Source: a virus
Reading direction: 5' to 3' (one strand)
IMG/VR virus record: IMGVR_UViG_3300005253_000262
Span: 8,475 to 72,474 of that record
DNA length: 64,000 nt
Shown: piece after piece, positions 3,059 through 64,000 of the stretch
Position numbering within the stretch: position 1 is the stretch's first letter
Layout: every line of letters starts with the position of its first letter
Made by a program: the position numbers and the translations under genes
Notes under the pieces: generated by a model
Database searches by the model: none
Seen by the model: only the letters and a program-made list of their open reading frames with translations
Told to the model about the DNA's origin: nothing

Positions 3059-6000
3059 GGCACTATTCCTGTACCCCAAGCGTAGTATACGGTTGCTGAC
3101 TCTCTCCAAATGTTTGCCACTCCCCCTGGCCCAATTGTCAGACCTCCCGCAGTATCGATTCTCGTGGCACCATCCAAATAATATAATGTAGTGCTTGCAC
3201 CTTCCGTAACTATATAATTACCGGAAGTGAAGGCGTTAACAACCGTCGTCATTGCATGAATAGGGAAATCTAAATTTCCAGATGCCGCTAATGTAAGGGT
3301 CCTTGCAGTACTTGCATCTTTAAATGCCATCTGGCCGCAATGTTCAGCCTCCAATGTATCACTAACGTTGTCATTGAACACAGGTAAGAAGTTAAACCCG
3401 ACGTCTCTCCAATTATTGCCGTGATCTTTTACTTCCGCACCGGAAGTTTGACCAGTTGCTGCATTATTTTGTGTTCTAAGATCGTCTGTACCATTATAGG
3501 ATAGAGTAACCGAACCATCCTGCAGGGCTACGATCATATTATCTAATGCTGCTCCACCACGTAAACGAAAGTCAACACCATCCACCATATCAATGTACAG
3601 GTCGATTGTGTTGAAATATATACGAGCATCATTACCTGTACCAAAGCGCAGTTCGGAATTATCTACGATGAGCATGTCGGCCAGCGTATCTAACTCTACC
3701 AGGTTATCGGTAAAGGTAAGAATATCGTTGGCGGCAACCTGGATCTTGAGTGCTTGGCCGCTACCAGTATTTATGCTGCCGAAGCCTCCGCCTGAAGACC
3801 AGAGAATTTGTATAGATTGCGTAGAGCCGAGTTGGATACGGGCATCGTCAACTAACTTGAGTGTAGATCCATTCCAAGTTAGGGCCCCGGCTGTATCTAT
3901 CCAGTCGCCAGCACTACGATACAATAGGTCATTATTGACTGCGCCAGTAAGGTTGACATCGGTTAGGTCGTTAAATGCAGAAGCACCTCCCGAAGTTAAA
4001 TCAAAATCTGTCCCCAGATCATTCGTAAACATTGGGGTGCCATCTAAGGCAACCCAGTATTGACCATCGCCAGTAACGTCAACCGCGGCGGCCGCTGACT
4101 CCTCGATGTAGACACTTGCTCCTGTAGCCGCTCGAGATACGCGTATGCCGGCATCGAGTGTGATAAGTCTTTCTCCGCCGTTATATGCAAGGAGAGCCCC
4201 TGCATCTGGATCAGCAGAAAATACAGTAGCCAATCCGCCAGCTACCTTAGTCGCGCGCCATCTGATATTTTGGCCGCGGACATTACTCGTCAGTCCGCCA
4301 AATGTGCCACTACCTGCATCCAGCGTCCACCAGGCAACTGTATCGTTACTATTGGTGAAGACAAAGTTGTTAACGCCACTATCGGTATCGACAGGAGGAT
4401 TGGAACCAACGATGTTGCCCCGAGCTTCGAGTTGAGACGTGGAGATGGCTACAAGTTTGTCATTACCACCCACAATGAGCCGATCTACTACGACGTTGTC
4501 TAATCTATCTGCGTGGATATTCTCTGCACCAGTAACGGCCCAATCTACGTGTTCTGTAGCGAGGAAGCCGAGAAGGTTATCGTGACTGACAATCGCCTCT
4601 ATTTCGCCAGCAGTCTGGTCGGCTGCTGCATTGTCCTCTACGTTTAGGATTGTTCGGGCCGCGCCCGCTGTAATCTCCTCACCATCTCCGGCACCCGCAG
4701 TATCACGTCCGAGGAACCTATTCGTAGCCGTGAAGTCAATATCCGCAGCTACAAGACGCCGACTCTCAAAGTCAACACCATCAGCTACGAGCACATGACG
4801 ATTAGTAGGCGTGGAGGTATTGACATCAGTCAGATCAGATAACTCTGTCGCTCCGCCTCCAGTATTGGCCACCCAGGTACCATCGGCCTGCAGAACTAGA
4901 TTATCATCAGCTGGTGTAGTCGACTTAGGCACGTTTCCAGCCTGATAAGTATTACCAACTAAAGTGCCAAACTCTTCTGATATAGCCCTAATGAATACTG
5001 AATCGATTCTGGTCCTCTCGAAGTCATGGAATCCCTGATTGTATCCAATGCTAAAGTTCCAATACCGAGCCTGTTGAAAGCCAGATGTTGGAACGACAAT
5101 GCGTATTAATTTCCATACGTTTAGTGACTCATCTAGTGTCGTTGTAACCTGGCCGCTCTGTATAGGTTGAGTAGGTTCTTTATCTAGGGGGTTCTTCCAT
5201 CCAAGCGCGCCAGTTATAAACTGTAGTGGCACGGAGGCAGTTGCGGCGGTTGTTTGGTACTTAATTATGAATTCCCACGTCTGTGCTTGTGCCTTTATCT
5301 TTGGCTCAGAAATGAGGCTTGCCCTGTCACCCGCACCTCCACCAGAGAAGGTAAAGAAGTCTATAGCATTCGAACCCTCCTCACCGTCGCCGGGGCGCCA
5401 ATCGACTCGAGCATCGCCTGCTATTATACCTATCTGCCAGTATGTGCCAGAGACAAATGCCCCAACTGTGCCCGTACTGAGGTCGAAATCGGGATCGGCT
5501 ACTTCTTGTATGTCAGAGAATTGCGTGCGTTGGAATTCAAAAGTGACGGCAGTCCCTGCAGCAGTTGGGATGTTTACAGTAGGATCAGTATCTTGCTGGA
5601 ATATGTGAACCACACCAACCTTGTATGCCTGAGCCGCACCCGTTCCTACAACACCCATTATTTCGTCTATAGAGAACAGGTACCATCGAATGTTACTGAC
5701 CACGAAGGCAATGCGCTCACCCACACGTAGCGTGCCATAGAAGCCGCTTTGAATAGCGCCATCAAAGTCGGCCTTATTAATAAGGATAGCATCCGTATTC
5801 TGGAAGTTGTTTTGTGATCCCGAAGTATCTGTAGCACGAGCTGTGAGCATAGCGTACCGGGATTGCCCTGCGGCTAACTGTGTAGTGTCTAAGTCGTCAT
5901 AGGTGAGTGAAACAGCATAGTCTGGAGGACTTATGATATCTGTGCCGTCGGTACCTGTAGTCTGTGTCGTCGACGCAAATACTCCGACGACTCCCGCTCG

Positions 6001-7809
6001 TGTGATGTGGCGTGCGCGTATATCGTAGGCTGTACCAGGATCGAGTGGCACAATAATAGCAGTCTGTAGATCCACGCGTGTAGCTGGTACAGCGATGTAA
6101 TCGGTACCCGTCGTCTTCTTGAACTGTACCTGTGTCTCCACCACAAAGGCACCGGGATCATCCCACGTTACTCTGAGTCCATCTGACGAAGTACCAGCAG
6201 ATCCAGTAACGGTGGTAACAGCAGCAGCTAAGCCTGTGACAGCAATCTGCGCGGTAGGATCAAAGCCACCAGGATCGTTGACAGCTACACTAGTGCCTAA
6301 TGGGGCTGTTGTGTTATAGATGCTGGAGTCTTCCTCGATCACCTCCATAACCACTGCACCAGACACAGAGAAGGACATGTTGATGATTCGGACTGTTACA
6401 TTAACATTATTCGTCTCCTGACAATTCAGTATTGTCACATCGAATGGCTGGAACGTGAGTCCCTTCGGCCCCACTGCGAAACGCCACGTGGCACCAAATC
6501 GGCTGCGTCGTACTATCTCACGCGCTACACGTTCAGCAATGGACTCGTCTTGAATTAATGAAAAGTCATGTTCCTTAAAACGTACTCCTCCATCCTCTGT
6601 AACGGCGGCACTTTCTTCTACCTCCGGATACGGGCGAGGCTGGTATAAGCTCTCGGGGCCCGGATCCACGTAGCGACCCCGCGCTGTATTGTATAGGAGT
6701 CTTAGATCCCCTGAAGGGGTAAAGTCTACTCCTACCGCACGGAGTAGATCGCCTTCGAGGATATCACTGAATGTTGTTAGGTCATCGTTGGGGGCCCAAA
6801 TATAGTACATTCCACCCACGGTAGCGACTTTACCATTAATGGCACCTTCCAGTTGCTTGATGATGGCCTCGTGGTCATTAGTTACTGGTAGGAGTCCACC
6901 AACGCGATATCGAGGTATACCGTCTACTGTTGCCTCGCTTACATTGGCTGCGGCCATAGCCTGATCCATATCGATGTCGTCGCCATCGATGCCTACGCCT
7001 ATCACAAGCTTACCGTTAATCTTCCACCCAAGTAGGTAGCGTAACACTACGAGCGCCCAGTTGTCCCCTAAGATGGTACCCCCGTTCTCCCACTGCCAGG
7101 TGCTCTGATCGTCCGTACGGTGAGCGCCTGTACCTCCACGAGTTGAGTCCAAACGCGGATCGTATACGGGCCCGCCTTGGGCTACTTGCGTAATCCGAGT
7201 AGGGATACCGCCTTCTACTTTCTCGTGATCAATCTTAAAGCGCAGACGGTAATGCGCCATACCGAGACCATCAGCTGTAGCAGGCCAGAGCGTATTTGCG
7301 AAGTTGTCGTCGCCGTCGATGTCTATAAAGGCTGTTTGGGATTCGGTACCAAGTCGTGTTTGACGCCACAGACCATCAGCCCAAGCACCAGTAGCGGCGT
7401 CTCCTGAGAACGTGATGATCTCGTCGTTGATGTATAGGTCCTGGTATGACTCGATAAGGTGCCCAGCACCGGCGATAATATAGGAATAGAAATCGTTGCC
7501 AGCGCCGTGTCTTCCTGCCCATACAAGGTCCGTTGATAATGCTGTGGTTCCGAAGACCCACTTCATTTCTGCCTGGGCATCTACTGAGACGCGAATGCGC
7601 ATTTGGACGGTGCTTAGGTCTAACGAAGGGGCTAGTAAAGCAGAGAGACCCCCTGTTATGCCGCCACCAATTGCTGCTGCTAAGAGGGCATTCTTTATGT
7701 GGAAGAGTCCGGCGAACGGTGTGGAACTAAAGCCTAATAGAGGATAAGCATAGACTGCAATGACGGCAATGATTGCGCCAATAACAATTGCTTTGAAGAC
7801 TTTACCCAT
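3055..7809 (-). CDS. tail tip / central fibre (host specificity J-like) protein
   Basis: 1584 aa; VYDPRLDST...W..N.AL tip motif, FN3-like segment, LSDLTDV fibre repeats; follows NlpC-like gene. Confidence 0.85.
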   Translation of the reverse strand: MGKVFKAIVIGAIIAVIAVYAYPLLGFSSTPFAGLFHIKNALLAAAIGGGITGGLSALLAPSLDLSTVQMRIRVSVDAQAEMKWVFGTTALSTDLVWAGRHGAGNDFYSYIIAGAGHLIESYQDLYINDEIITFSGDAATGAWADGLWRQTRLGTESQTAFIDIDGDDNFANTLWPATADGLGMAHYRLRFKIDHEKVEGGIPTRITQVAQGGPVYDPRLDSTRGGTGAHRTDDQSTWQWENGGTILGDNWALVVLRYLLGWKINGKLVIGVGIDGDDIDMDQAMAAANVSEATVDGIPRYRVGGLLPVTNDHEAIIKQLEGAINGKVATVGGMYYIWAPNDDLTTFSDILEGDLLRAVGVDFTPSGDLRLLYNTARGRYVDPGPESLYQPRPYPEVEESAAVTEDGGVRFKEHDFSLIQDESIAERVAREIVRRSRFGATWRFAVGPKGLTFQPFDVTILNCQETNNVNVTVRIINMSFSVSGAVVMEVIEEDSSIYNTTAPLGTSVAVNDPGGFDPTAQIAVTGLAAAVTTVTGSAGTSSDGLRVTWDDPGAFVVETQVQFKKTTGTDYIAVPATRVDLQTAIIVPLDPGTAYDIRARHITRAGVVGVFASTTQTTGTDGTDIISPPDYAVSLTYDDLDTTQLAAGQSRYAMLTARATDTSGSQNNFQNTDAILINKADFDGAIQSGFYGTLRVGERIAFVVSNIRWYLFSIDEIMGVVGTGAAQAYKVGVVHIFQQDTDPTVNIPTAAGTAVTFEFQRTQFSDIQEVADPDFDLSTGTVGAFVSGTYWQIGIIAGDARVDWRPGDGEEGSNAIDFFTFSGGGAGDRASLISEPKIKAQAQTWEFIIKYQTTAATASVPLQFITGALGWKNPLDKEPTQPIQSGQVTTTLDESLNVWKLIRIVVPTSGFQQARYWNFSIGYNQGFHDFERTRIDSVFIRAISEEFGTLVGNTYQAGNVPKSTTPADDNLVLQADGTWVANTGGGATELSDLTDVNTSTPTNRHVLVADGVDFESRRLVAADIDFTATNRFLGRDTAGAGDGEEITAGAARTILNVEDNAAADQTAGEIEAIVSHDNLLGFLATEHVDWAVTGAENIHADRLDNVVVDRLIVGGNDKLVAISTSQLEARGNIVGSNPPVDTDSGVNNFVFTNSNDTVAWWTLDAGSGTFGGLTSNVRGQNIRWRATKVAGGLATVFSADPDAGALLAYNGGERLITLDAGIRVSRAATGASVYIEESAAAAVDVTGDGQYWVALDGTPMFTNDLGTDFDLTSGGASAFNDLTDVNLTGAVNNDLLYRSAGDWIDTAGALTWNGSTLKLVDDARIQLGSTQSIQILWSSGGGFGSINTGSGQALKIQVAANDILTFTDNLVELDTLADMLIVDNSELRFGTGNDARIYFNTIDLYIDMVDGVDFRLRGGAALDNMIVALQDGSVTLSYNGTDDLRTQNNAATGQTSGAEVKDHGNNWRDVGFNFLPVFNDNVSDTLEAEHCGQMAFKDASTARTLTLAASGNLDFPIHAMTTVVNAFTSGNYIVTEGASTTLYYLDGATRIDTAGGLTIGPGGVANIWRESATVYYAWGTGIVP

Positions 7810-56931: not shown

Positions 56932-57791
56932 AGACCGAAGCAAAGCAAGCGGTCAGGCCCCCGCAGTTTAGGATTGAGACCGTAGAGCAGAAGGAGCGGT
57001 ATCTGAAGCTCCTGATATACGGCAACTACGGTGTGGGTAAAACGACACTTGCTGCATCTGCATTAATGGTCCCATCGATGCGGGATGTGTTGTTGATCAG
57101 CGCCGAAGCAGGTGATCTCAGTGTATCCCACATGAAAGGCCTCGATGCTACTACCATACGGGACTTCAAGGCACTTGGCTATATCAACGAGTTCCTCAAG
57201 CAGCATTGCAAGGCGCGCGACGAGGACAATGAGAAAGAACTCATCAAGCTAGAGGCGTTCAATAGGGGTGTAGAGGCGTCGAAGATCAAGAAGGCCAAAC
57301 GCTACAACACTGTCATTGTTGACAGCCTCACCGAGGTGGAAGCCTACTGCTTTAATCAGCTCCTAAGCATCACTGATGCCACGCGTTTGGATACCGAGAC
57401 ACAAAGCTCCGAGTGGACTGAATACAAGAAGAACCATACGATGATGCTTCGAGTTGTCCGGGCATTCAGGGACCTGCCAATGCACGTTATCGTTACGGCA
57501 GCTGAGCAGTACCAACAGGACGAGACAAAGAAAATGAAGTTCTCGCCTGACCTAACAGGGAAGCTAAGTAAGAAAGTCCAGGGCTTCTTTGATATGGTGG
57601 GCTACTACCAGCAAGCGCGTAAAGGCGACGACCTAGCACGGCGTCTCTACGTAATGCCGTCGCCCTCAGGAAGGTATGATGCTAAGCATCGTTACCAGAC
57701 CTACAAGGGTGAATACTTCGATAACCCAACGATTGGGACGATCCTCAAAGAGGTAGGCTTGCTCGACAAAGGTGGGGCGTCACTGAAATGA
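56907..57791 (+). CDS. Sak4-like AAA ATPase (ssDNA annealing)
   Basis: LIYGNYGVGKTT, VIVDSLTE, AK.R; between exonuclease and SSB; GAGGAG RBS. Confidence 0.8.
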   Translation: MATASPNVKTEAKQAVRPPQFRIETVEQKERYLKLLIYGNYGVGKTTLAASALMVPSMRDVLLISAEAGDLSVSHMKGLDATTIRDFKALGYINEFLKQHCKARDEDNEKELIKLEAFNRGVEASKIKKAKRYNTVIVDSLTEVEAYCFNQLLSITDATRLDTETQSSEWTEYKKNHTMMLRVVRAFRDLPMHVIVTAAEQYQQDETKKMKFSPDLTGKLSKKVQGFFDMVGYYQQARKGDDLARRLYVMPSPSGRYDAKHRYQTYKGEYFDNPTIGTILKEVGLLDKGGASLK

Positions 57792-58177
57792 AAAGGCGTG
57801 AGTTCCTCATAAGTGTTGGTGCTGTACCTGTAGCTGTGTACTTTGCAGGGCTACCAGAGATCACTGAGGCTGTTGTTGAACGCGCTACCACACCAATTGG
57901 ACTACAACCATGGCAATTAAGGATCTGGGCGGCGCTTGAACGCGGCAAGGACGTAATATATGTGACCAGCACACAAGTAAATGCTTGGCGTGTGTTTAAC
58001 CTATTCAAGCGCCATAAGAAACTGTTCTGCACAAGTATCAATGGTGCACTCTATGGAAGGCGCGCTGACCTCATAATAATGGATGACTTCGTAGACGATA
58101 TCGATCCTGATTGGTTCAATTCATGCATACGAACTCGATTAACCCGCAACGGGAAAGTTGACTGGGCATATACATGA
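57788..58177 (+). CDS. twin-arginine-leader protein 3 carrying a terminase-ATPase-like fragment
   Basis: MKRREFL leader; GALYGRRADLIIMDD...WFNSCIRTRL vs own TerL GPLVGRGADLMLIDD...WFKSTAYTRL. Confidence 0.6.
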   Translation: MKRREFLISVGAVPVAVYFAGLPEITEAVVERATTPIGLQPWQLRIWAALERGKDVIYVTSTQVNAWRVFNLFKRHKKLFCTSINGALYGRRADLIIMDDFVDDIDPDWFNSCIRTRLTRNGKVDWAYT

Positions 58178-58428
58178 ACAACATCAGACTGGGCACACAA
58201 GTACGAGATACCATAACTGGGTTTGAAGGAGTAGCTATTGCGCGCACTACGTGGTTACACGGTTGTGCACGGGTTACCATACAGCCCAAAGAGCTTAGGA
58301 ATGGGATCCCTATCGAATCCCAGGTGTTCGACGAACTTCAACTGGAGAAGGTTCGAAAGAAGTCGGTATCTGCTTCAGACGGCAGAACTGGTGGGCCACA
58401 AGACGACGCAAAGGCGTTATCACGGTGA
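58174..58428 (+). CDS. phage hypothetical protein
   Basis: LG..VRDTITGFEG...R..WLHGC.R...QP motif common in phages. Confidence 0.65.
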   Translation: MNNIRLGTQVRDTITGFEGVAIARTTWLHGCARVTIQPKELRNGIPIESQVFDELQLEKVRKKSVSASDGRTGGPQDDAKALSR

Positions 58429-58628
58429 GTAAGAACGTCTGGGTAACGGTTACGATCGTAGACGATACTGAGAATCGATTGGCGATCCTCGTAGACCATG
58501 GCGCCGAAAGCGACGTATGGATTCCGCGGTCACAAATTAAGGACCAGACAGAGCATCCATTCCAAGAGGGTGATACCCTTGAGATCGAGATCCCGGAATG
58601 GCTAGCACTTGAGAAGGGAATGATATGA
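58425..58628 (+). CDS. small beta-barrel hypothetical protein
   Basis: T..AILV....WIPRSQI...IPEWLA.EKG. Confidence 0.65.
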   Translation: MSKNVWVTVTIVDDTENRLAILVDHGAESDVWIPRSQIKDQTEHPFQEGDTLEIEIPEWLALEKGMI

Positions 58629-58634
58629 AATAAC

Positions 58635-58779
58635 GATCGAGGTGGCGAAATCCAGACGCTGATGCTGTGGGAGTCTTAGGAAGGTGTGCCACAGCCCTGA
58701 GAATTAGTGGTGCTATATCTACCAGCCACTGATCACGAATTACTAAGACGTGTAGGTGAAAATCCTGCCCTTGATCACC
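58635..58779 (+). ncRNA. tRNA-like RNA with pseudoknot replacing the anticodon arm
   Basis: Acceptor GATCGAGG/CCTTGATC+ACC, Leu-like D arm TGGCGAAATCCAGACGC, T arm GTAGG-TGAAAAT-CCTGC, crossing stems GCTGTGG/CCACAGC and GTCTTAG/CTAAGAC. Confidence 0.65.
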
Positions 58780-58840
58780 TTTCAGACGCCTCATAACGAG
58801 GACGAGAACGAGAACGAGGCTCTGAACGAATTTAAGATGT

Positions 58841-58884
58841 GCTTGATACTGCCGTAAGTGTCAAGCTTCCATTCAGATACGGCA
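58841..58884 (+). promoter_or_regulatory. H-type pseudoknot in SSB mRNA leader
   Basis: GCTTGATAC/GTGTCAAGC stem; loop TGCCGTA pairs with TACGGCA 58878-58884. Confidence 0.65.
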
Positions 58885-58922
58885 ACTAAATACATACGAC
58901 AACATGCCTAGGAGTAAGTAAC

Positions 58923-59369
58923 ATGGCACCAGAAGAAGCAGTAAGTTTTGACAAGGGAGAATCCCTTGTAGTCGACATGAGTGGCGTGGATGAAGCGCAG
59001 GAGTTCGAAGCTATCCCCGCCGGAATGTACCCGTGTCAGATCATCGAAAACGAGTTCGGCTACAGCCAGAGCAAAGGCACGCCGATGTGGACCCTCGTGT
59101 TGGAAGTTAGCGAAGGCGAGTACGCTGGGCGGCGACTATGGAACCACATGGTCATGGCTGGCAAGGGCATGCCTTTCACGAAGAAGGATCTTGCCCAGAT
59201 CGCGCCGGAGCTCCTCGAGAATCCATTCAGCGCGGATGATGCTGAGGTCGTCGCGTCGATGCTCGGCAAAGACGTCATCGCGAAAGTTAAGATCCAATTT
59301 CGCGAAGGCGAGAAGCAGAACAACGTGCGTGGGCTCTTCGCTGCTGACGAAGGCGACGGATTCAGTTGA
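58923..59369 (+). CDS. single-stranded DNA-binding protein (DUF669-like)
   Basis: FE.IPAG.Y, S.KG.PM, GEYAGRRLW, N.V, acidic/Phe C-terminus; after Sak4. Confidence 0.8.
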   Translation: MAPEEAVSFDKGESLVVDMSGVDEAQEFEAIPAGMYPCQIIENEFGYSQSKGTPMWTLVLEVSEGEYAGRRLWNHMVMAGKGMPFTKKDLAQIAPELLENPFSADDAEVVASMLGKDVIAKVKIQFREGEKQNNVRGLFAADEGDGFS

Positions 59370-59393
59370 TCAAAGGCGGTTTGGTATCTAGTC

Positions 59394-59699
59394 GTGTCTC
59401 AGCGCAGTTCATTAAGTGTCCTTCAGATACTTGATAAGCTCGTTGAGCACGGCTGGATCCCACTCCGGTCTATGGCTGTTCTGTTAGGCCTCCGCGAGGT
59501 ACGTGGGATCTACCAGCGCCAAAGGGGCAAGAATGCAATACCAGTTGTTCAGGTTGGGGGCACAAAACGTGTCTACGCCGATGTAGTCGTCGAGACTCTA
59601 GAAAAAGCCACCCCCAACAAGTACCGAGGAGATGGCACAATTCTTAGTCTGTACCGTGACATGCTCAGACGCAAGCAAAAGGAGAAGGAAGATCGTTAG
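59394..59699 (+). CDS. excisionase-like HTH protein
   Basis: LR.MA.LLG.....IY......IP..QVGG..RV. Confidence 0.55.
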   Translation: MSQRSSLSVLQILDKLVEHGWIPLRSMAVLLGLREVRGIYQRQRGKNAIPVVQVGGTKRVYADVVVETLEKATPNKYRGDGTILSLYRDMLRRKQKEKEDR

Positions 59700-59899
59700 G
59701 TTTATCGACTTGCGTGGGATGTCAACTGGTTACAGATTCGCCTTCTGGGATACCGTGGTGGATAGATTCATCATGGTTGGGGACGATCAGGCATGGGATA
59801 CCGTCGATGACTTACGAGAAGGGGCAAGGATTGCGAACCTCAACATAAACAGATATATCAATCTATGCCCTGCTTGGGCATACATCGAGGAGAAAGAGG

Positions 59900-60589
59900 A
59901 TGCCTAAAGCATACGTGTTACTATCAGGGGGAATTGATTCAACTACATGCCTTGCACAAGCCGTTAAGGACTGGGATGGTCTAGTGTGCGGGGTTAGTTT
60001 CAACTACGGACAGAGACACACAAATGAAATCCAACATGCGCACATGGTTGCAACGGCGCTCGATTGCGCCTTTATCACGAAGGACATTTCTGGGATCATT
60101 GGTAAAGGTGGGATTACTGATAACTCCCTTGTCATGCCTCAAGTTTCCTACGACGACCTCCCGGGTGGTGTCAGTCCCACCTATGTCCCGTTTAGAAATG
60201 GAACTCTCCTTTCCTGCATCACTTCACTTGCAGCGACAGATCCAGAAGCTGAAGCAGTGTACTTTGGCGCTCACGCAGATGACGCTGCAAATTGGGCATA
60301 CCCGGACTGTACTCCTGAATTTATCGGAGGCATGGCTAACGCTATCTATATCGGGACCTACCACAAAATCCGACTGTACACTCCTCTAATGTTCATGAAC
60401 AAAGCGCAAGTCATCAGGCGAGGAGAGGAGTTATTTGCGCCCTTCGAGCTAACATGGTCGTGCTACGAGGGGGGCGTCCACCACTGTGGTATGTGCCCAA
60501 CATGCCGTAGTCGTAGAGAGGGGTTCAGAGATGCAGGAGTAACAGATCCTACAGCGTATGAACAAGAACCAGTGGAGATGCACTTATGA
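59900..60589 (+). CDS. queC: 7-cyano-7-deazaguanine synthase
   Basis: LLSGGIDSTT, YGQRH..E, TYVPFRN, YPDC.PEF, TWSCY.G...HCG.C.TC..R. Confidence 0.96.
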   Translation: MPKAYVLLSGGIDSTTCLAQAVKDWDGLVCGVSFNYGQRHTNEIQHAHMVATALDCAFITKDISGIIGKGGITDNSLVMPQVSYDDLPGGVSPTYVPFRNGTLLSCITSLAATDPEAEAVYFGAHADDAANWAYPDCTPEFIGGMANAIYIGTYHKIRLYTPLMFMNKAQVIRRGEELFAPFELTWSCYEGGVHHCGMCPTCRSRREGFRDAGVTDPTAYEQEPVEMHL

Positions 60590-61032
60590 TTATTGCTCCA
60601 CAAACGGCAGAACAGTACATGCAGTTCCTGAAGGACACTTCGTGGTACAAGCACGCTGGGCATAACGACAGTGGGGAGATAGCGTACCTCGCTCTAGGCC
60701 TCGCAGGAGAGACAGGCGAATTCGTCGATCAGGTCAAGAAGATCGTGCGCGTATCTGGGTTCAATAACTACAACGAGTTTCGCCGTATACTGGCAGAGAG
60801 TGGGCGTGAGGAACTCCTCGTTGAGGAACTTGGCGATGTACTGTGGTACATGACACGGCTCATGGACGTGCTTAATATCGATATCCAGGAGCTAATGGTG
60901 CGCAACACCTATAAACTCTATGCTCGGCTTAGGGAGAAACCTGAGTTCAAGGACCTTGAATGGCCCTTCACAGATCCATTCATCAGCTACGAGAACGTTA
61001 AGGAGCGAATCGATCATGTATGTATCGACTAA
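60586..61032 (+). CDS. MazG-like nucleotide pyrophosphohydrolase
   Basis: LGLAGETGE....KK...EELGDVLWY...N..KL..R. Confidence 0.85.
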   Translation: MIIAPQTAEQYMQFLKDTSWYKHAGHNDSGEIAYLALGLAGETGEFVDQVKKIVRVSGFNNYNEFRRILAESGREELLVEELGDVLWYMTRLMDVLNIDIQELMVRNTYKLYARLREKPEFKDLEWPFTDPFISYENVKERIDHVCID

Positions 61033-61531
61033 GAGATATGACCACTCGCGAGGATACAGTGTCGCATATCGTCAGCACAAGGCAGACTCTCACTGCCGAT
61101 TCATTCACGGTTACAGTCTCGCCTTCGATTTTGAGTTCGAGTCCGAAACGTTGGACGTACGGAATTGGGTTTGCGACTTCGGAGGGTTTAGTACTCTCAG
61201 AGATTTCCTTGACGAGTACTTCGATCATACTCTGCTGGTTGCTCAGGATGATCCTGAACTCGAGTTCTTTAGAGAACTTAACCGTAAAGGCTTGGCACAA
61301 GTTAGAGAGGTCACAAAGACTGGATGTGAAGGCCTAGCAGAGTACCTATTCTGGTGGATAAACGAAGTCTGGATAGAAGAGAACGGTTACAAGCCGAGAG
61401 TCTTCTGTCGCAGCGTCCGTGTCTGGGAAACACCCTCGAATAGCGCTATGGTCGAGTGGTCTCGCGAGCAGTGGGTTATAGCAGGCCAAAAGGGGTATCC
61501 TAGTACCCAAGGTTCACACTATGGTAGCTAA
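61016..61531 (+). CDS. queD: 6-carboxytetrahydropterin synthase
   Basis: SHCRFIHGYS, DFG, FDHT, GCE.LAE, VWETPSNSA; AGGAG RBS. Confidence 0.93.
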   Translation: MYVSTKRYDHSRGYSVAYRQHKADSHCRFIHGYSLAFDFEFESETLDVRNWVCDFGGFSTLRDFLDEYFDHTLLVAQDDPELEFFRELNRKGLAQVREVTKTGCEGLAEYLFWWINEVWIEENGYKPRVFCRSVRVWETPSNSAMVEWSREQWVIAGQKGYPSTQGSHYGS

Positions 61532-61772
61532 GAACAAGACGATGAAGATAGCATGCTGTGTAATGGCTGATGGAGATGTAGCATTTACTCTCGCAGATCA
61601 GACCTCTATCAACACGGTAATGGAGAAATGGAACGACAAGCGTAGTAAGGAGGAGCGCCTCAAATACAAAGAGGCAGGCACACAGGGTGGAGTCGTAGTT
61701 ATAACGATGCTTTCATCCAACTATTTCAAGCTCCCATTAAAAGATGGGTGGCTAATTAAGGAGCCAACATGA
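61521..61772 (+). CDS. hypothetical protein
   Basis: Overlapping ORF within que cluster. Confidence 0.5.
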   Translation: MVAKNKTMKIACCVMADGDVAFTLADQTSINTVMEKWNDKRSKEERLKYKEAGTQGGVVVITMLSSNYFKLPLKDGWLIKEPT

Positions 61773-61978
61773 GCGACAAGACCACAGCATTGTTCCTGCA
61801 GGAAATCCAGCTACAGATTGAGCAGGAGATCGACAAGCTGAAGCCCGACTTCATGGCCGTAGAAGTATCGGGTCCTATAGCTGGTTCCCATAAGGAGTGG
61901 CCCAAACTTCAAGGCCTGATGAACATCAGTACACGTATCTACGATGCCGCCGTACTCTTAGGAGCACCCAGTGAGTAA
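61769..61978 (+). CDS. hypothetical protein
   Basis: AAGGAG RBS, ATGA-coupled. Confidence 0.55.
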   Translation: MSDKTTALFLQEIQLQIEQEIDKLKPDFMAVEVSGPIAGSHKEWPKLQGLMNISTRIYDAAVLLGAPSE

Positions 61979-63683
61979 GGAACACAAGTTCCAAGTGATC
62001 GAGTGCTTTGGCCCCACCATACAAGGTGAGGGGCTAATGTCGGGGACCGTGACACACTTCCTACGCCTCGGTGGGTGTGGGCTGCGATGTACCTGGTGCG
62101 TGGCTGAAAATAGCCACGTATTGATGGCTGATTGGTCACAGAAGCCTATACAGGACGTTGTGGCTGGTGACTATGTGATGGCGCTAGTACATGGTAAACA
62201 CAACAGTCGGCTACAATCTACAGAAGTTACAGATACACATGATAACGGCATGCAGGAGGTAGTAGAGGTCGAGAATTCTACCAATTCCCTAGTATGTACT
62301 CCCAACCATCGAATATATACTAACCTCGCTTGGCGTGAAGTACAAGAGTTGATCCAGGAGATGGATGTATACTACGTGCCGCAAGGTGTTCAAAATCGTC
62401 ACTGGCGAATGGGATGGCTGGCAGGAATGATCGCTGGCGATGGATCATACTCCAAATCTAGTAATCAGGGGACTAGACTCGATATAGATAGCAAGGATGT
62501 AGAAATTATCGACCTTTCTCAAGAAATACTACAGGAACTAGAAATTCATGTAGCACGTAGAACATATACAGCCCGTAGTGGGTCACTTATTCACAAACTA
62601 CACACGAACCGTAAAGGAATAGCTGATAAACTTCGTCAAAAGCTGTCCCCACCAAGGATACCTACTGACATAGATTTTAGCAGGGGATGGGTTGCGGGCT
62701 TTTTTGATGCTGAGGGATGTATGGCAAAGTCTAACACAGCCTATACAATCAGCCAGTCTGCTCGTGTGAACCAAGACAAGATTGACGAACTAAAGGCGCA
62801 CCTGAGCATTGTAGGTATAGGATGGACGGTGAGGGATACAGGTAGAGGCGTTGTAGAATTCCGCCTTAAAGATTGGGTTCGACTTCTCACCTACTGTTGC
62901 CCCATACTACACCGGAAGTATCCTGAATACATAGGAAGACAAGCCATTCCCCATGCCCCCGCACACATAGTACCAGACACAGAATTGCGTCACGTGTACG
63001 ACCTAACCACAGAAGCAGGGAGCTACGTAGCAGAGGGGTTTATAGTACATAATTGTGACAGTATGCATGCGGTACTGCCTGAGGAGGTCAAGAAGAATCG
63101 TACACTGATGACCACAATGGAGATCCTGGAGTACATCAAAAGCCTAGCACCTGCGCCTTATGTTACCCTAACAGGCGGTGACCCGTGTATACAGGAAGAG
63201 CTTGGCCCACTCGTGATACACCTAAACATGGCTGGGATGAAAGTAGCAGTAGAGACCCAAGGACAATTCTTCCCGAGCTGGCTTGAGACCACAGATGTAA
63301 TCACGTTCTCACCCAAAGGCCCCTCCAGCGGTAATATCGTCGAGATAGAGGACCTATATAATTGGTTAGGGCGCCGTAGCCCTAAGCGTAGCTTCCGGGT
63401 ATGTATCAAGGTCGTAGTCTTCGATGAAGCGGACTTCAAATACGCACTGGAAGTATACGCAGCCCTCCCAACGGTGTTCTACGACTCATTCTACTTCACC
63501 GCAGGAACTCCGATAGATACTACGGGCCCCCAGGAACGTATTGCCGCGGTACTACAGAACGAACAAGCCCTTGCGCAGATGATGCTAGGGCTCGCGCAAG
63601 GTGGGGAATTTTTTACTGAGAAGGTCCATATAGGATGTCAGCAACATGTCTTATTGTGGCCCGAAGCAGACCGAGGAGTGTAG
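61971..63683 (+). CDS. queE: 7-carboxy-7-deazaguanine synthase (radical SAM), intein-containing
   Basis: E.FGPTIQGEG, FLRLGGC...C..[intein]CDS, TLTGGDP, VETQG, SPKGPSS, QQH. Confidence 0.93.
   Translation: MSKEHKFQVIECFGPTIQGEGLMSGTVTHFLRLGGCGLRCTWCVAENSHVLMADWSQKPIQDVVAGDYVMALVHGKHNSRLQSTEVTDTHDNGMQEVVEVENSTNSLVCTPNHRIYTNLAWREVQELIQEMDVYYVPQGVQNRHWRMGWLAGMIAGDGSYSKSSNQGTRLDIDSKDVEIIDLSQEILQELEIHVARRTYTARSGSLIHKLHTNRKGIADKLRQKLSPPRIPTDIDFSRGWVAGFFDAEGCMAKSNTAYTISQSARVNQDKIDELKAHLSIVGIGWTVRDTGRGVVEFRLKDWVRLLTYCCPILHRKYPEYIGRQAIPHAPAHIVPDTELRHVYDLTTEAGSYVAEGFIVHNCDSMHAVLPEEVKKNRTLMTTMEILEYIKSLAPAPYVTLTGGDPCIQEELGPLVIHLNMAGMKVAVETQGQFFPSWLETTDVITFSPKGPSSGNIVEIEDLYNWLGRRSPKRSFRVCIKVVVFDEADFKYALEVYAALPTVFYDSFYFTAGTPIDTTGPQERIAAVLQNEQALAQMMLGLAQGGEFFTEKVHIGCQQHVLLWPEADRGV
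62097..63053 (+). mobile_element. intein with LAGLIDADG homing endonuclease (319 aa)
   Basis: Starts CVAENSHVLMAD, T.NH block B, LAGMIAGDG and VAGFFDAEG, VYDL...IVHN/C. Confidence 0.93.
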
Positions 63684-63684
63684 T

Positions 63685-63972
63685 ATGAGTGTCACAGAAG
63701 AACAGGTAAAAGGAGTACAAAGACACGCCTACATGAGGGTGATCCTGAAGGACATGGGAATTGACCTCGAGGAGGTGAACTTCAAGGGGACTCCCGAACG
63801 ATGGCTGAAGTACCTGGAGAGTTATATAGTCCCCTACAATCCCCAGGATGACCTTGGAGTCACATTTCCTTTGAAAGGGGCCTCCGAGGATATCTACGAT
63901 AGAGCCATGATCGTACAAGCTGGGATCCCCTACAGAGCGGTATGTGCCCACCATCTATTACCGGTGCTGGGG
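63685..63972 (+). CDS. folE: GTP cyclohydrolase I, 3'-truncated
   Basis: TPER, FP, MIV..I....CAHHLLP..G; runs into adapter. Confidence 0.88.
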
Positions 63973-64000
63973 CTGTCTCTTATACACATCTGACGCTGCC
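63973..64000 (+). other. Nextera/Tn5 adapter (artefact)
   Basis: CTGTCTCTTATACACATCT-GACGCTGCC. Confidence 0.97.

Follow-up and report, generated by a model that had tools for sequence, protein, structure and literature searches.

A tRNA-shaped module with enlarged arms, probably descended from a class II tRNA gene, upstream of an SSB gene in a siphovirus

Introduction

In the siphovirus genome IMGVR_UViG_3300005253_000262, a 294-nt gap separates the stop of a small open reading frame (ORF), g67, at 58628 from the start of a DUF669/SSB-like gene at 58923, and a tRNA-shaped stretch at 58635-58779, here called the element, lies within it. What kind of object is this? An initial annotation, made from the sequence, proposed a new class of non-coding RNA. 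Positions are those of the window, by which we mean the whole 64-kb stretch of DNA analysed, itself part of a 72,474-b IMG/VR virus genome that CheckV rates as complete. We conclude that the element quite probably derives from a tRNA-Leu-like (class II) gene, because its helices stand in tRNA order, a diverged copy has a Leu-type D arm, and its 3' end reads A-CC. It would be a structured + strand RNA module, sitting after a small-ORF cassette behind a Sak4-like gene and before the leader of the SSB gene.

A tRNA frame with enlarged arms

The helices of the element are arranged as in a class II tRNA: acceptor, D, one hairpin where the anticodon arm would be, another where the variable arm would be, and T. 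The stems, identified by reading the sequence, match the minimum-free-energy (MFE) fold; their coordinates are collected in Table 1. The helices of the initial annotation are all there: an 8-bp acceptor-like stem with a single G-U (at pair 5) and ending ACC, a 5-bp T stem closed by a TGAAAAT loop, a 9-bp hairpin in the middle (hairpin 2), and complementarity for two crossing 7-bp helices, at 58664-70/58689-95 (hairpin 1) and at 58673-79/58743-49. The acceptor-like stem has no G3-U70 pair, and its discriminator position is A, followed by CC. The statement that no standard anticodon arm forms was also right. A canonical 5-bp/7-nt arm one base after the D arm is absent; in its place, starting 3 nt past the D arm, is hairpin 1, 7 bp with an 18-nt loop that includes CUUAGGA. 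Linkers measure 3, 7 and 18 nt. The window copy also lacks the elbow bases of a tRNA (GG in the D loop, UUCRANY as T loop), its D loop being the 9-nt AAATCCAGA and its T loop TGAAAAT. As modelled, the element is probably unable to act as a decoding tRNA, because it has no 5-bp/7-nt anticodon arm and the GG/T-psi-C elbow contacts are missing in the window copy.

The + strand folds at -44.6 kcal/mol (z -2.03; 7 of 200 shuffles as good), the - strand at -34.4 kcal/mol (z +0.36; 127 of 200 shuffles as good). The best nested fold is the scaffold with both hairpins. Nested alternatives that use the 58673-79/58743-49 helix are 4.5-9 kcal/mol costlier in the window sequence; as an isolated duplex in a pseudoknotted fold, this crossing helix would add about -6.9 kcal/mol, and it can be extended to 10 nt at 90% complementarity. 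Its pairing makes a pseudoknot with hairpin 1 possible. The element shows signs of being under selection as a + strand structure. We also noted a 15-nt direct repeat of 80% identity, CCAGCCACTGATCAC (58722-58736) and CCTGCCCTTGATCAC (58764-58778), by which the 3' strand of hairpin 2 resembles the T stem plus the acceptor 3' strand; internal duplication, or alternative pairing with the 5' acceptor strand, is possible.

The outline was also sought in 40 Markov-simulated windows, requiring an 8-bp acceptor (at most one G-U), an abutting 5-bp/7-nt T arm, a 4-bp D arm 1-2 nt past the acceptor and 90-220 nt overall, with both strands counted. Chance alone would give the stack of the element (8+5 bp followed by A-C-C-T, where a canonical tRNA has 7+5, discriminator and CCA) 0.5 times per window. 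If the acceptor is set to 7 bp, the scaffold arises 1.75 times per 64 kb simulated versus 3 in the real window, the two extra ones lying on the - strand away from the element. The tRNA shape by itself is at chance level, and the case for non-randomness rests on comparative data: relatives, the slot they share, and a diverged copy.

A diverged copy with a Leu-type D arm and a rebuilt hairpin

One metagenome locus (L012) holds an identical copy of the element. A diverged copy was found in run X5, where one contig aligns to 58656-59400 with 88 differences in 745 aligned positions and 37 gap letters. The DNA runs holding the element stretch carry the label marine sediment metagenome. Within the element, the X5 differences given here are those listed, taken to be in positional order, and they reach 58753.

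To the left of its aligned part the X5 contig reads TGAATTAACGCGGAGTGGCGAAACTGGTAA. Its D region runs ...GTGGCG AAACTGGTAA and then A58656-CGC, giving U-G, a 3-bp GCG/CGC stem and an 11-nt loop, AAACTGGTAAA, that contains UGG. This is the class II D-arm layout (U-G, 3-bp stem, 11-nt loop), as in phage T4 tRNA-Leu and tRNA-Ser, and 10 of the 11 loop bases agree with T4 tRNA-Leu. The tRNA-Leu-like D arm of the initial annotation is thereby borne out by X5. With 9 nt in its own loop, the window copy appears from this comparison to have shortened it to AAATCCAGA, losing GG.

Hairpin 2 differs in X5 by 58703 A>G, an added C after 58705, 58733 T>A and two paired changes, 58707 G>C with 58729 C>G and 58708 T>A with 58728 A>T. 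These seven changes rebuild it as a perfect 7-bp stem with the register shifted by one; a further change, 58709 G>C, shortens the stem at the top, and the loop gains 10 nt. Elsewhere, 58753 T>C turns a T-stem U-G into C-G and 58692 C>T turns a hairpin 1 C-G into U-G, both wobble-type changes that fit the + strand only. Only one change falls in the 47 nt of 58656-58702, compared with ∼12% over the contig (binomial estimate, P ∼0.02), and none of the listed changes falls in 58734-58749. Both strands of the crossing helix are unchanged, and covariation neither supports nor refutes it. With the listed X5 changes applied, the fold with hairpin 1, hairpin 2 and T arm has -29.8 kcal/mol, versus -28.7 kcal/mol in the window. 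The X5 insertions around hairpin 2 sum to 11 nt, not a multiple of three, which speaks against a coding role for either strand; we rejected the - strand ORF 58794-58537 (85 aa) as a protein-coding gene, since it has no PHROG family and the X5 indels are not in threes.

tRNAs at the same position in relatives

Relatives were collected with the Sak4 protein and its alignment (A1), which retrieved 6 IMG/VR loci and 54 metagenome loci; the gene order from helicase to QueD is conserved among them. For the 43 loci that cover the slot between Sak4 and SSB, after 10 were dropped as duplicates by contig name or identical layout, the non-coding gap directly upstream of SSB ranges from 34 to 457 nt. Small ORFs in the slot are present in some relatives and absent in others. 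ARAGORN, scanning 58 loci, placed a + strand tRNA in the slot in 8 distinct loci; a - strand tRNA-Asn call within the Sak4 gene of L045 was left out of this count.

Judged by their sequences, the eight slot tRNAs are genuine cloverleaves and covary strongly: 98.2% of cells are paired, 10 of 21 pairs are changed on both sides, and none of 500 shuffles equals this. The one in L005 scores 47.8 bits against Rfam tRNA. Their discriminator is U. The anticodon loops, at 9-10 nt, are larger than normal, with GAGA or UAGA as the last four bases (9 nt, NNYNGAGAN, in six of the eight; 10 nt, AAUACUAGAU, in two), with a sixth anticodon-stem pair possible in four of the six that have a 9-nt loop. ARAGORN calls them Ser(NGA) or gives a 4-base anticodon; shifted one base on, they read GAG/UAG (Leu). 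Often they lie ∼10-20 nt from the pseudoknot of the SSB leader described below. In L028 the tRNA begins 4 nt past the stop of the g67 homologue, and in the window the element begins 6 nt past the g67 stop; the element therefore occupies the tRNA position of these relatives.

On sequence, however, the element is not the tRNA found there. Position, strand and a loop string, CCCUGAGA, identical in L005 and L026, are common to both, but the slot tRNAs are class I, 76-nt cloverleaves whose discriminator is U and whose D and T loops are canonical. R1, a covariance model built from all eight, scores its own members at 85-95 bits; over window 57000-60000, with filters off, it gave 10 matches at E 0.61-9.7, which were judged noise, and none was on the element + strand. 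An exact 11-mer, CAGCCCTGAGA, is common to window 58692-58702 and the anticodon stem/loop of the L005 tRNA (L005:3193-3203), and CCCTGAGA occurs in L026 too. The 11-mer match had a BLAST E of 4.5 against four loci, and the sharing could be chance or a common recognition string.

Searches for known families and homologues

No described family matches the element, though this type of object, a phage tRNA-derived module resembling a stable RNA, is already known. The initial annotation had expected no full hit from tRNAscan-SE, ARAGORN or Infernal, and indeed default ARAGORN and Rfam, whose families include Y RNA-like RNAs, riboswitches and ribozymes, give nothing on it. The remark that it is far shorter than tmRNA and lacks a tag frame likewise agrees with an ARAGORN tmRNA search (-m, 80% threshold) and Rfam, neither of which found a tmRNA. 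Bacterial tRNA-Sec has 8/5 stems, a 6-bp D stem, a UCA anticodon and a long variable arm. The element has the 8/5 stems and a long arm, together with a D stem of 3-4 bp, no UCA anticodon loop and no ARAGORN call, and does not pass as tRNA-Sec.

Homologues were equally scarce. blastn against 50,697 phage records gave no match to the 801-nt query at E≤1e-5 or to the 157-nt query at E≤10, and in BLAST against loci L002-L065 the element hit nothing but its identical L012 copy. R2, a covariance model built on the element, returned just two self-hits over 57 sources (318,372 b), and a best match of E 1.3 over 24 loci with g67 homologues. Exact or gapped element patterns were found 0 times in viral contigs, and a 20-mer 0 times in genome contigs. 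The pattern GTGGCGAAAN{5,10}CGCTGATGC matched 8 loci, judged chance: the best R2 score, 16.9 bits, was inflated by the imposed match and came with no T arm, and ARAGORN gave no tRNA. A search of genome contigs for Sak4 relatives came back empty, as did one of viral contigs with the SSB protein alone. In the portions of the literature that our search reached, no paper on such an element turned up.

A probable derived tRNA gene, and the points that weigh against it

We read the element as follows. The outer frame of a tRNA would have been kept, with its D arm, its acceptor closing in A-CC and, stacked on this acceptor, its T stem, as the anticodon arm grew to a 7-bp/18-nt hairpin and the variable arm to a 9-bp/13-nt hairpin; an added 7-bp helix between loop and linker would make a possible pseudoknot. 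The element is, going by its surroundings, co-transcribed with the neighbouring genes, because all genes here are on the + strand and no sigma-70 promoter-like or intrinsic terminator-like site was found on that strand beside the element. An operon transcript would then carry it along with those genes. We tentatively propose that host tRNA-maturation enzymes could recognise the acceptor/T-stem stack and cut the transcript before the SSB leader, releasing a stable RNA: the 5' end would be made by RNase P at G58635 and then the 3' end by trimming and CCA completion at ACC, and, with the cut falling just upstream of the SSB leader, an RNA of ∼145 nt would be released, like the stable RNAs of the T4 tRNA region.

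Several observations weigh against a maintained, tRNA-derived RNA. In simulation the scaffold with an 8-bp acceptor arises 0.5 times per 64 kb, and the real window has one. Default ARAGORN finds 0 tRNA or tmRNA genes in the 64-kb window or in the remaining 8.6 kb of the genome; Rfam gives 0 matches at the gathering threshold and, at E≤10 over 58300-59100, nothing on the element. R1 applied to the element gives just a - strand match (4.5 bits, E 2.5). The acceptor/T stack is 8+5 bp, not 7+5, and without D-loop GG and with TGAAAAT the elbow sensed by RNase P may not form; processing, stability and any trans function of the element are pure inference. The comparison covers just two sequence forms and, within the element, reaches in X5 as far as 58753, in the 5' strand of the T stem. 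Moreover, the X5 5' acceptor strand differs strongly from that of the window, and the MFE fold of the X5-like sequence is a different nested fold, on the 58673-79/58743-49 helix, 3 kcal/mol better than the one with hairpins 1 and 2.

The element is also missing from close relatives. In L032, whose Sak4, g67 and SSB are 90%, 85% and 91% identical to those of the window, 58629-58775 is cleanly absent: right after the g67 stop comes CACCTCACAA..., the homologue of window sequence beginning at 58776. Run X4 has the window form plus minor contigs that pass from g67 straight into CACCTCACAAC..., and another minor X4 form whose D loop reads ...GTGGCGGAACAA before 58653. Since a close relative does without it, the element is, as far as these sequences go, dispensable and not essential.

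Provided that it is transcribed and processed, the element would add an independent second case of a phage stable RNA on a tRNA frame to T4 RNAs C and D, which have been unexplained for decades. It would also show a route from a tRNA gene to a larger structured RNA through expansion of the anticodon and variable arms. Sister phages with nothing, an odd tRNA, or the element in the slot are natural contrasts that make its function testable. If only a remnant, the element is a warning that tRNA-like outlines occur by chance about once per 100 kb.

Alternative explanations

One alternative is decay: the element might be a tRNA-Leu pseudogene on its way out, or a neutral remnant that now does nothing, with hairpins that are partly leftovers and partly chance. 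The chance-level shape, the loss in the window of a D-loop GG that X5 retains, the non-canonical T loop, the absence from L032 and minor X4 variants, and the failure of every tRNA model would all suit such decay. We nonetheless consider it unlikely, as hairpin 2 is kept in X5 by coordinated stem changes, 58656-58702 is nearly invariant against ∼12% overall divergence, and fold stability is strand-specific.

A cis-acting mRNA structure with an incidental tRNA outline, independent of tRNA enzymes, is distinctly less favoured. It might serve as an RNase III/E site, stabilise the g129-g84-g67 message at its 3' end or regulate SSB expression, and it would accord with an intergenic element co-oriented with the operon, with hairpins maintained in X5, and with a strongly conserved SSB-leader pseudoknot 61 nt downstream. 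It would not account for an X5 D arm that is specifically tRNA-Leu-like, or for true tRNAs in the slot of 8 relatives, and the SSB leader is intact in relatives without the element.

Phage tRNAs can counter tRNA-targeting defence, and a further possibility, one we find very doubtful, is a tRNA decoy or sponge: a non-decoding scaffold whose Leu-type anticodon-loop strings (CUUAGGA in the hairpin 1 loop, CUGAGAA in the junction) titrate a host tRNA-targeting nuclease or a tRNA-binding factor. What speaks for this are the 9-10-nt anticodon loops ending GAGA or UAGA in all slot tRNAs of relatives and the exact sharing of CAGCCCTGAGA with L005. By our arithmetic, however, about one 18-nt loop in two would contain a Y-U-NNN-R-N string by chance, the E of the 11-mer is as high as 4.5 against four loci, and CUUAGGA is predicted to be hidden within the crossing helix. 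Its wider form, to which we give just as little credence, has the whole Sak4-SSB slot dedicated to non-decoding tRNA mimics that bait a host tRNA-Leu-directed factor, for which an anticodon nuclease or a modification enzyme would be a candidate. The displayed strings would be ..CUGAGA.., ..CUAGA.. and ..CUUAGGA.., with eight relatives using class I tRNAs, and the window phage and X5 strain a 145-nt class II-derived RNA that includes a pseudoknot. If true, this would be a new RNA-based class of counter-defence in which scaffolds are swapped while the displayed loop is kept.

That the element acts as DNA, as a single-strand initiation or recombination site, is highly improbable: it does lie in a replication/recombination block (helicase, exonuclease, Sak4, SSB) and fully compensatory changes are strand-neutral, but five G-T wobble pairs and two wobble-type substitutions fit the + strand only, the - strand folds no better than shuffles, and a DNA site would leave the tRNA ancestry unexplained.

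Scarcely credible is an intron-containing tRNA-His(GUG) with an 8-bp acceptor, typical of tRNA-His, and a 59-nt intron after position 37, for which we know of no bacterial splicing system: ARAGORN models it over 58635-58779 with introns allowed at the 80% threshold, but makes no default-threshold call with or without introns, calls a false tRNA-Thr over the SSB start in the same relaxed run, and gives an anticodon stem with a G-G mismatch and a 16-nt unstructured variable loop, while X5 58733 T>A breaks one of the four Watson-Crick pairs of that stem yet fits hairpin 2, and the class II D arm does not fit. The initial annotation had named an intron-containing tRNA among the findings that would overturn its view; at the default threshold there is none, and what the 80% threshold brings out is this poor tRNA-His model.

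Two smaller ideas were rejected. For a phage-polymerase promoter in the hairpin 1 loop (TTAGGAA), the window has no repeated consensus and, by Pfam, no single-subunit RNA polymerase; its 818-aa ORF is DUF3854 (Pfam). As for a target-site duplication, the 7-mer ATAACGA flanks 58630-58799, but ∼4 such repeats are expected in 351 nt by our arithmetic, and the empty site of L032 does not fit.

Genomic context

The element is single-copy in its genome. The phage is of siphovirus type, and its tape measure, portal and terminase genes lie on the - strand. A + strand block comprises an SNF2 helicase, a PD-(D/E)XK exonuclease, the Sak4-like recombinase, g129, g84, g67 and the DUF669/SSB-like protein, as well as QueC, MazG, QueD and an intein-bearing QueE. 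Homologues of g67 occur in L002, L013, L028, L032 and L061. The small ORFs g129, g84 and g67 (57788-58628) vary in combination across L003, L004, L010 and L032, the behaviour of an insertion hot spot; g129 has a weak, partial PHROG match to a terminase-family profile. Genes for 7-deazaguanine (QueC, MazG-like, QueD-like, QueE and a GTP cyclohydrolase-like ORF) occupy 59900-63993, and the QueE radical-SAM protein is split by an intein with a LAGLIDADG domain at 61971-63683.

Between the element and the SSB gene, the window has ACGAG runs at 58795-58818, and L032 and L060 carry similar ones in the corresponding position. TTAGGAA is also present ahead of the SSB leader in L002 and L014, which have CACTTTAGGAA there (∼6170-6182 and ∼4080-4095, respectively), where the hairpin 1 loop has TCTTAGGAA. 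In L016 and L017 the sequence upstream of the leader is CACTAAGGAT, which recurs at window 37165-82.

The SSB leader itself contains an H-type pseudoknot, separate from the element and followed by ACUAA-rich sequence and a Shine-Dalgarno site. The comparison took in 14 sequences, one from the window and 13 from other loci, chosen by visual inspection of 43 upstream regions for the GCC...GGC type. All 14 form the six core pairs of stem 2, which comes in seven distinct types with fully compensatory triplets, and stem 1 is formed by 12 distinct helices of 6-9 bp. Inspected by eye, a second sequence type (L005, L019, L025, L028, L038) appears to keep the same topology. Rfam gave no match for this pseudoknot. 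T4 gene 32 has an autoregulatory pseudoknot that serves as translational operator (PMC3014915); the SSB-leader pseudoknot resembles it, but on an unrelated SSB family.

Table 1. Features of the element, its surroundings and the corresponding loci in relatives (window coordinates unless a locus is named)
Feature	Coordinates	Strand	Details
g67, 67-aa small ORF, phrog_8389	58425..58628	+	stop codon 6 nt upstream of element
147-nt stretch present in window and L012	58629..58775	+	absent from L032 and minor X4 variants
Acceptor-like stem, 5' strand	58635-42	+	GATCGAGG; pairs with CCTTGATC, 58769-76
D-like arm	58644..58660	+	GGCG 58644-47 / CGCT 58657-60, or GCG/CGC after U-G
Hairpin 1, anticodon-arm position	58664..58695	+	GCTGTGG 58664-70 / CCACAGC 58689-95, 7 bp, 18-nt loop
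CCCTGAGA motif	58695..58702	+	58696-58702 unpaired, linking hairpins 1 and 2
Hairpin 2, class II variable-arm position	58703..58733	+	9 bp (58703-11/58725-33), 2 G-U, 13-nt loop
CTAAGAC, 3' strand of helix crossing hairpin 1	58743..58749	+	partner GTCTTAG 58673-58679, 7 bp
T-like arm	58752..58768	+	GTAGG 58752-56 / CCTGC 58764-68, 5 bp, loop TGAAAAT
Acceptor-like 3' strand, then ACC	58769..58779	+	3' strand 58769-76, ACC 58777-79; sequence, MFE fold
Four tandem copies of hexamer AACGAG	58795..58818	+	context, from element to SSB leader
H-type pseudoknot, DUF669/SSB leader	58841..58884	+	stem 1 58841-49/58858-66; stem 2 58850-56/58878-84
DUF669/SSB-like gene, downstream of element	58923..59369	+	domain/family annotation
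SSB-leader pseudoknot in relatives	L002:6198-6241, L003:1697-1740, L016:3835-3882, L013:4632-4676, others
Slot tRNAs	L005:3164-3239, L013:4539-4615, L016:3524-3602, L017:3971-4049	+	ARAGORN
Slot tRNAs	L025:4286-4363, L026:1395-1473, L028:1611-1688, L038:638-713	+	ARAGORN

Comparison with known systems

Bacterial YrlA and other Y RNAs, and viral tRNA-like structures, are non-decoding RNAs with a tRNA-mimicking module. In YrlA this module is distal to the paired termini, and the tRNA-like structures of plant viruses stand at genomic 3' ends. No Rfam family match connects the element with Y RNA. tmRNA has other modules, pseudoknots among them, in place of the anticodon arm, while its acceptor and T arm persist. 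The element resembles this tRNA-like domain in retaining acceptor and T arm with the anticodon arm replaced; unlike tmRNA it is far shorter and has no tag reading frame and no G3-U70 pair.

Class II tRNA-Leu is nearer. With the tRNA-Leu of T4 (L066:4371-4457, - strand) the element has in common five helices in the same order, U-G before a 3-bp D stem, an A discriminator followed by CC and, in X5, the closely matching D loop. The element departs from class II tRNA-Leu in its 8-bp acceptor, the want of GG in the window D loop, the TGAAAAT T loop, arms of 7 bp/18 nt and, much larger, 9 bp/13 nt, and linkers of 3, 7 and 18 nt.

The closest analogue is the 'species 1' RNA of T4 (rnaC), like the element a phage-encoded RNA of ∼140 nt (139 nt). 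It lies among tRNA genes, beside a homing-endonuclease gene, and its fold of a terminal stem, a long hairpin, a second hairpin and a T arm abutting the 3' strand resembles the predicted architecture of the element. Its role is described as still unexplained (PMC3014915). The two show no sequence similarity (alignment A5), and R2 found no match over the T4 tRNA region. The T loop is canonical in rnaC (UUCGAAU) but not in the element, and the element has a D arm, which the MFE fold of rnaC lacks, and possibly a pseudoknot. The evidence falls short of a new class of RNA, as first proposed; a derived class II tRNA, with its helices in tRNA order, is the better reading of the element, which has in rnaC a phage precedent of similar size and layout.

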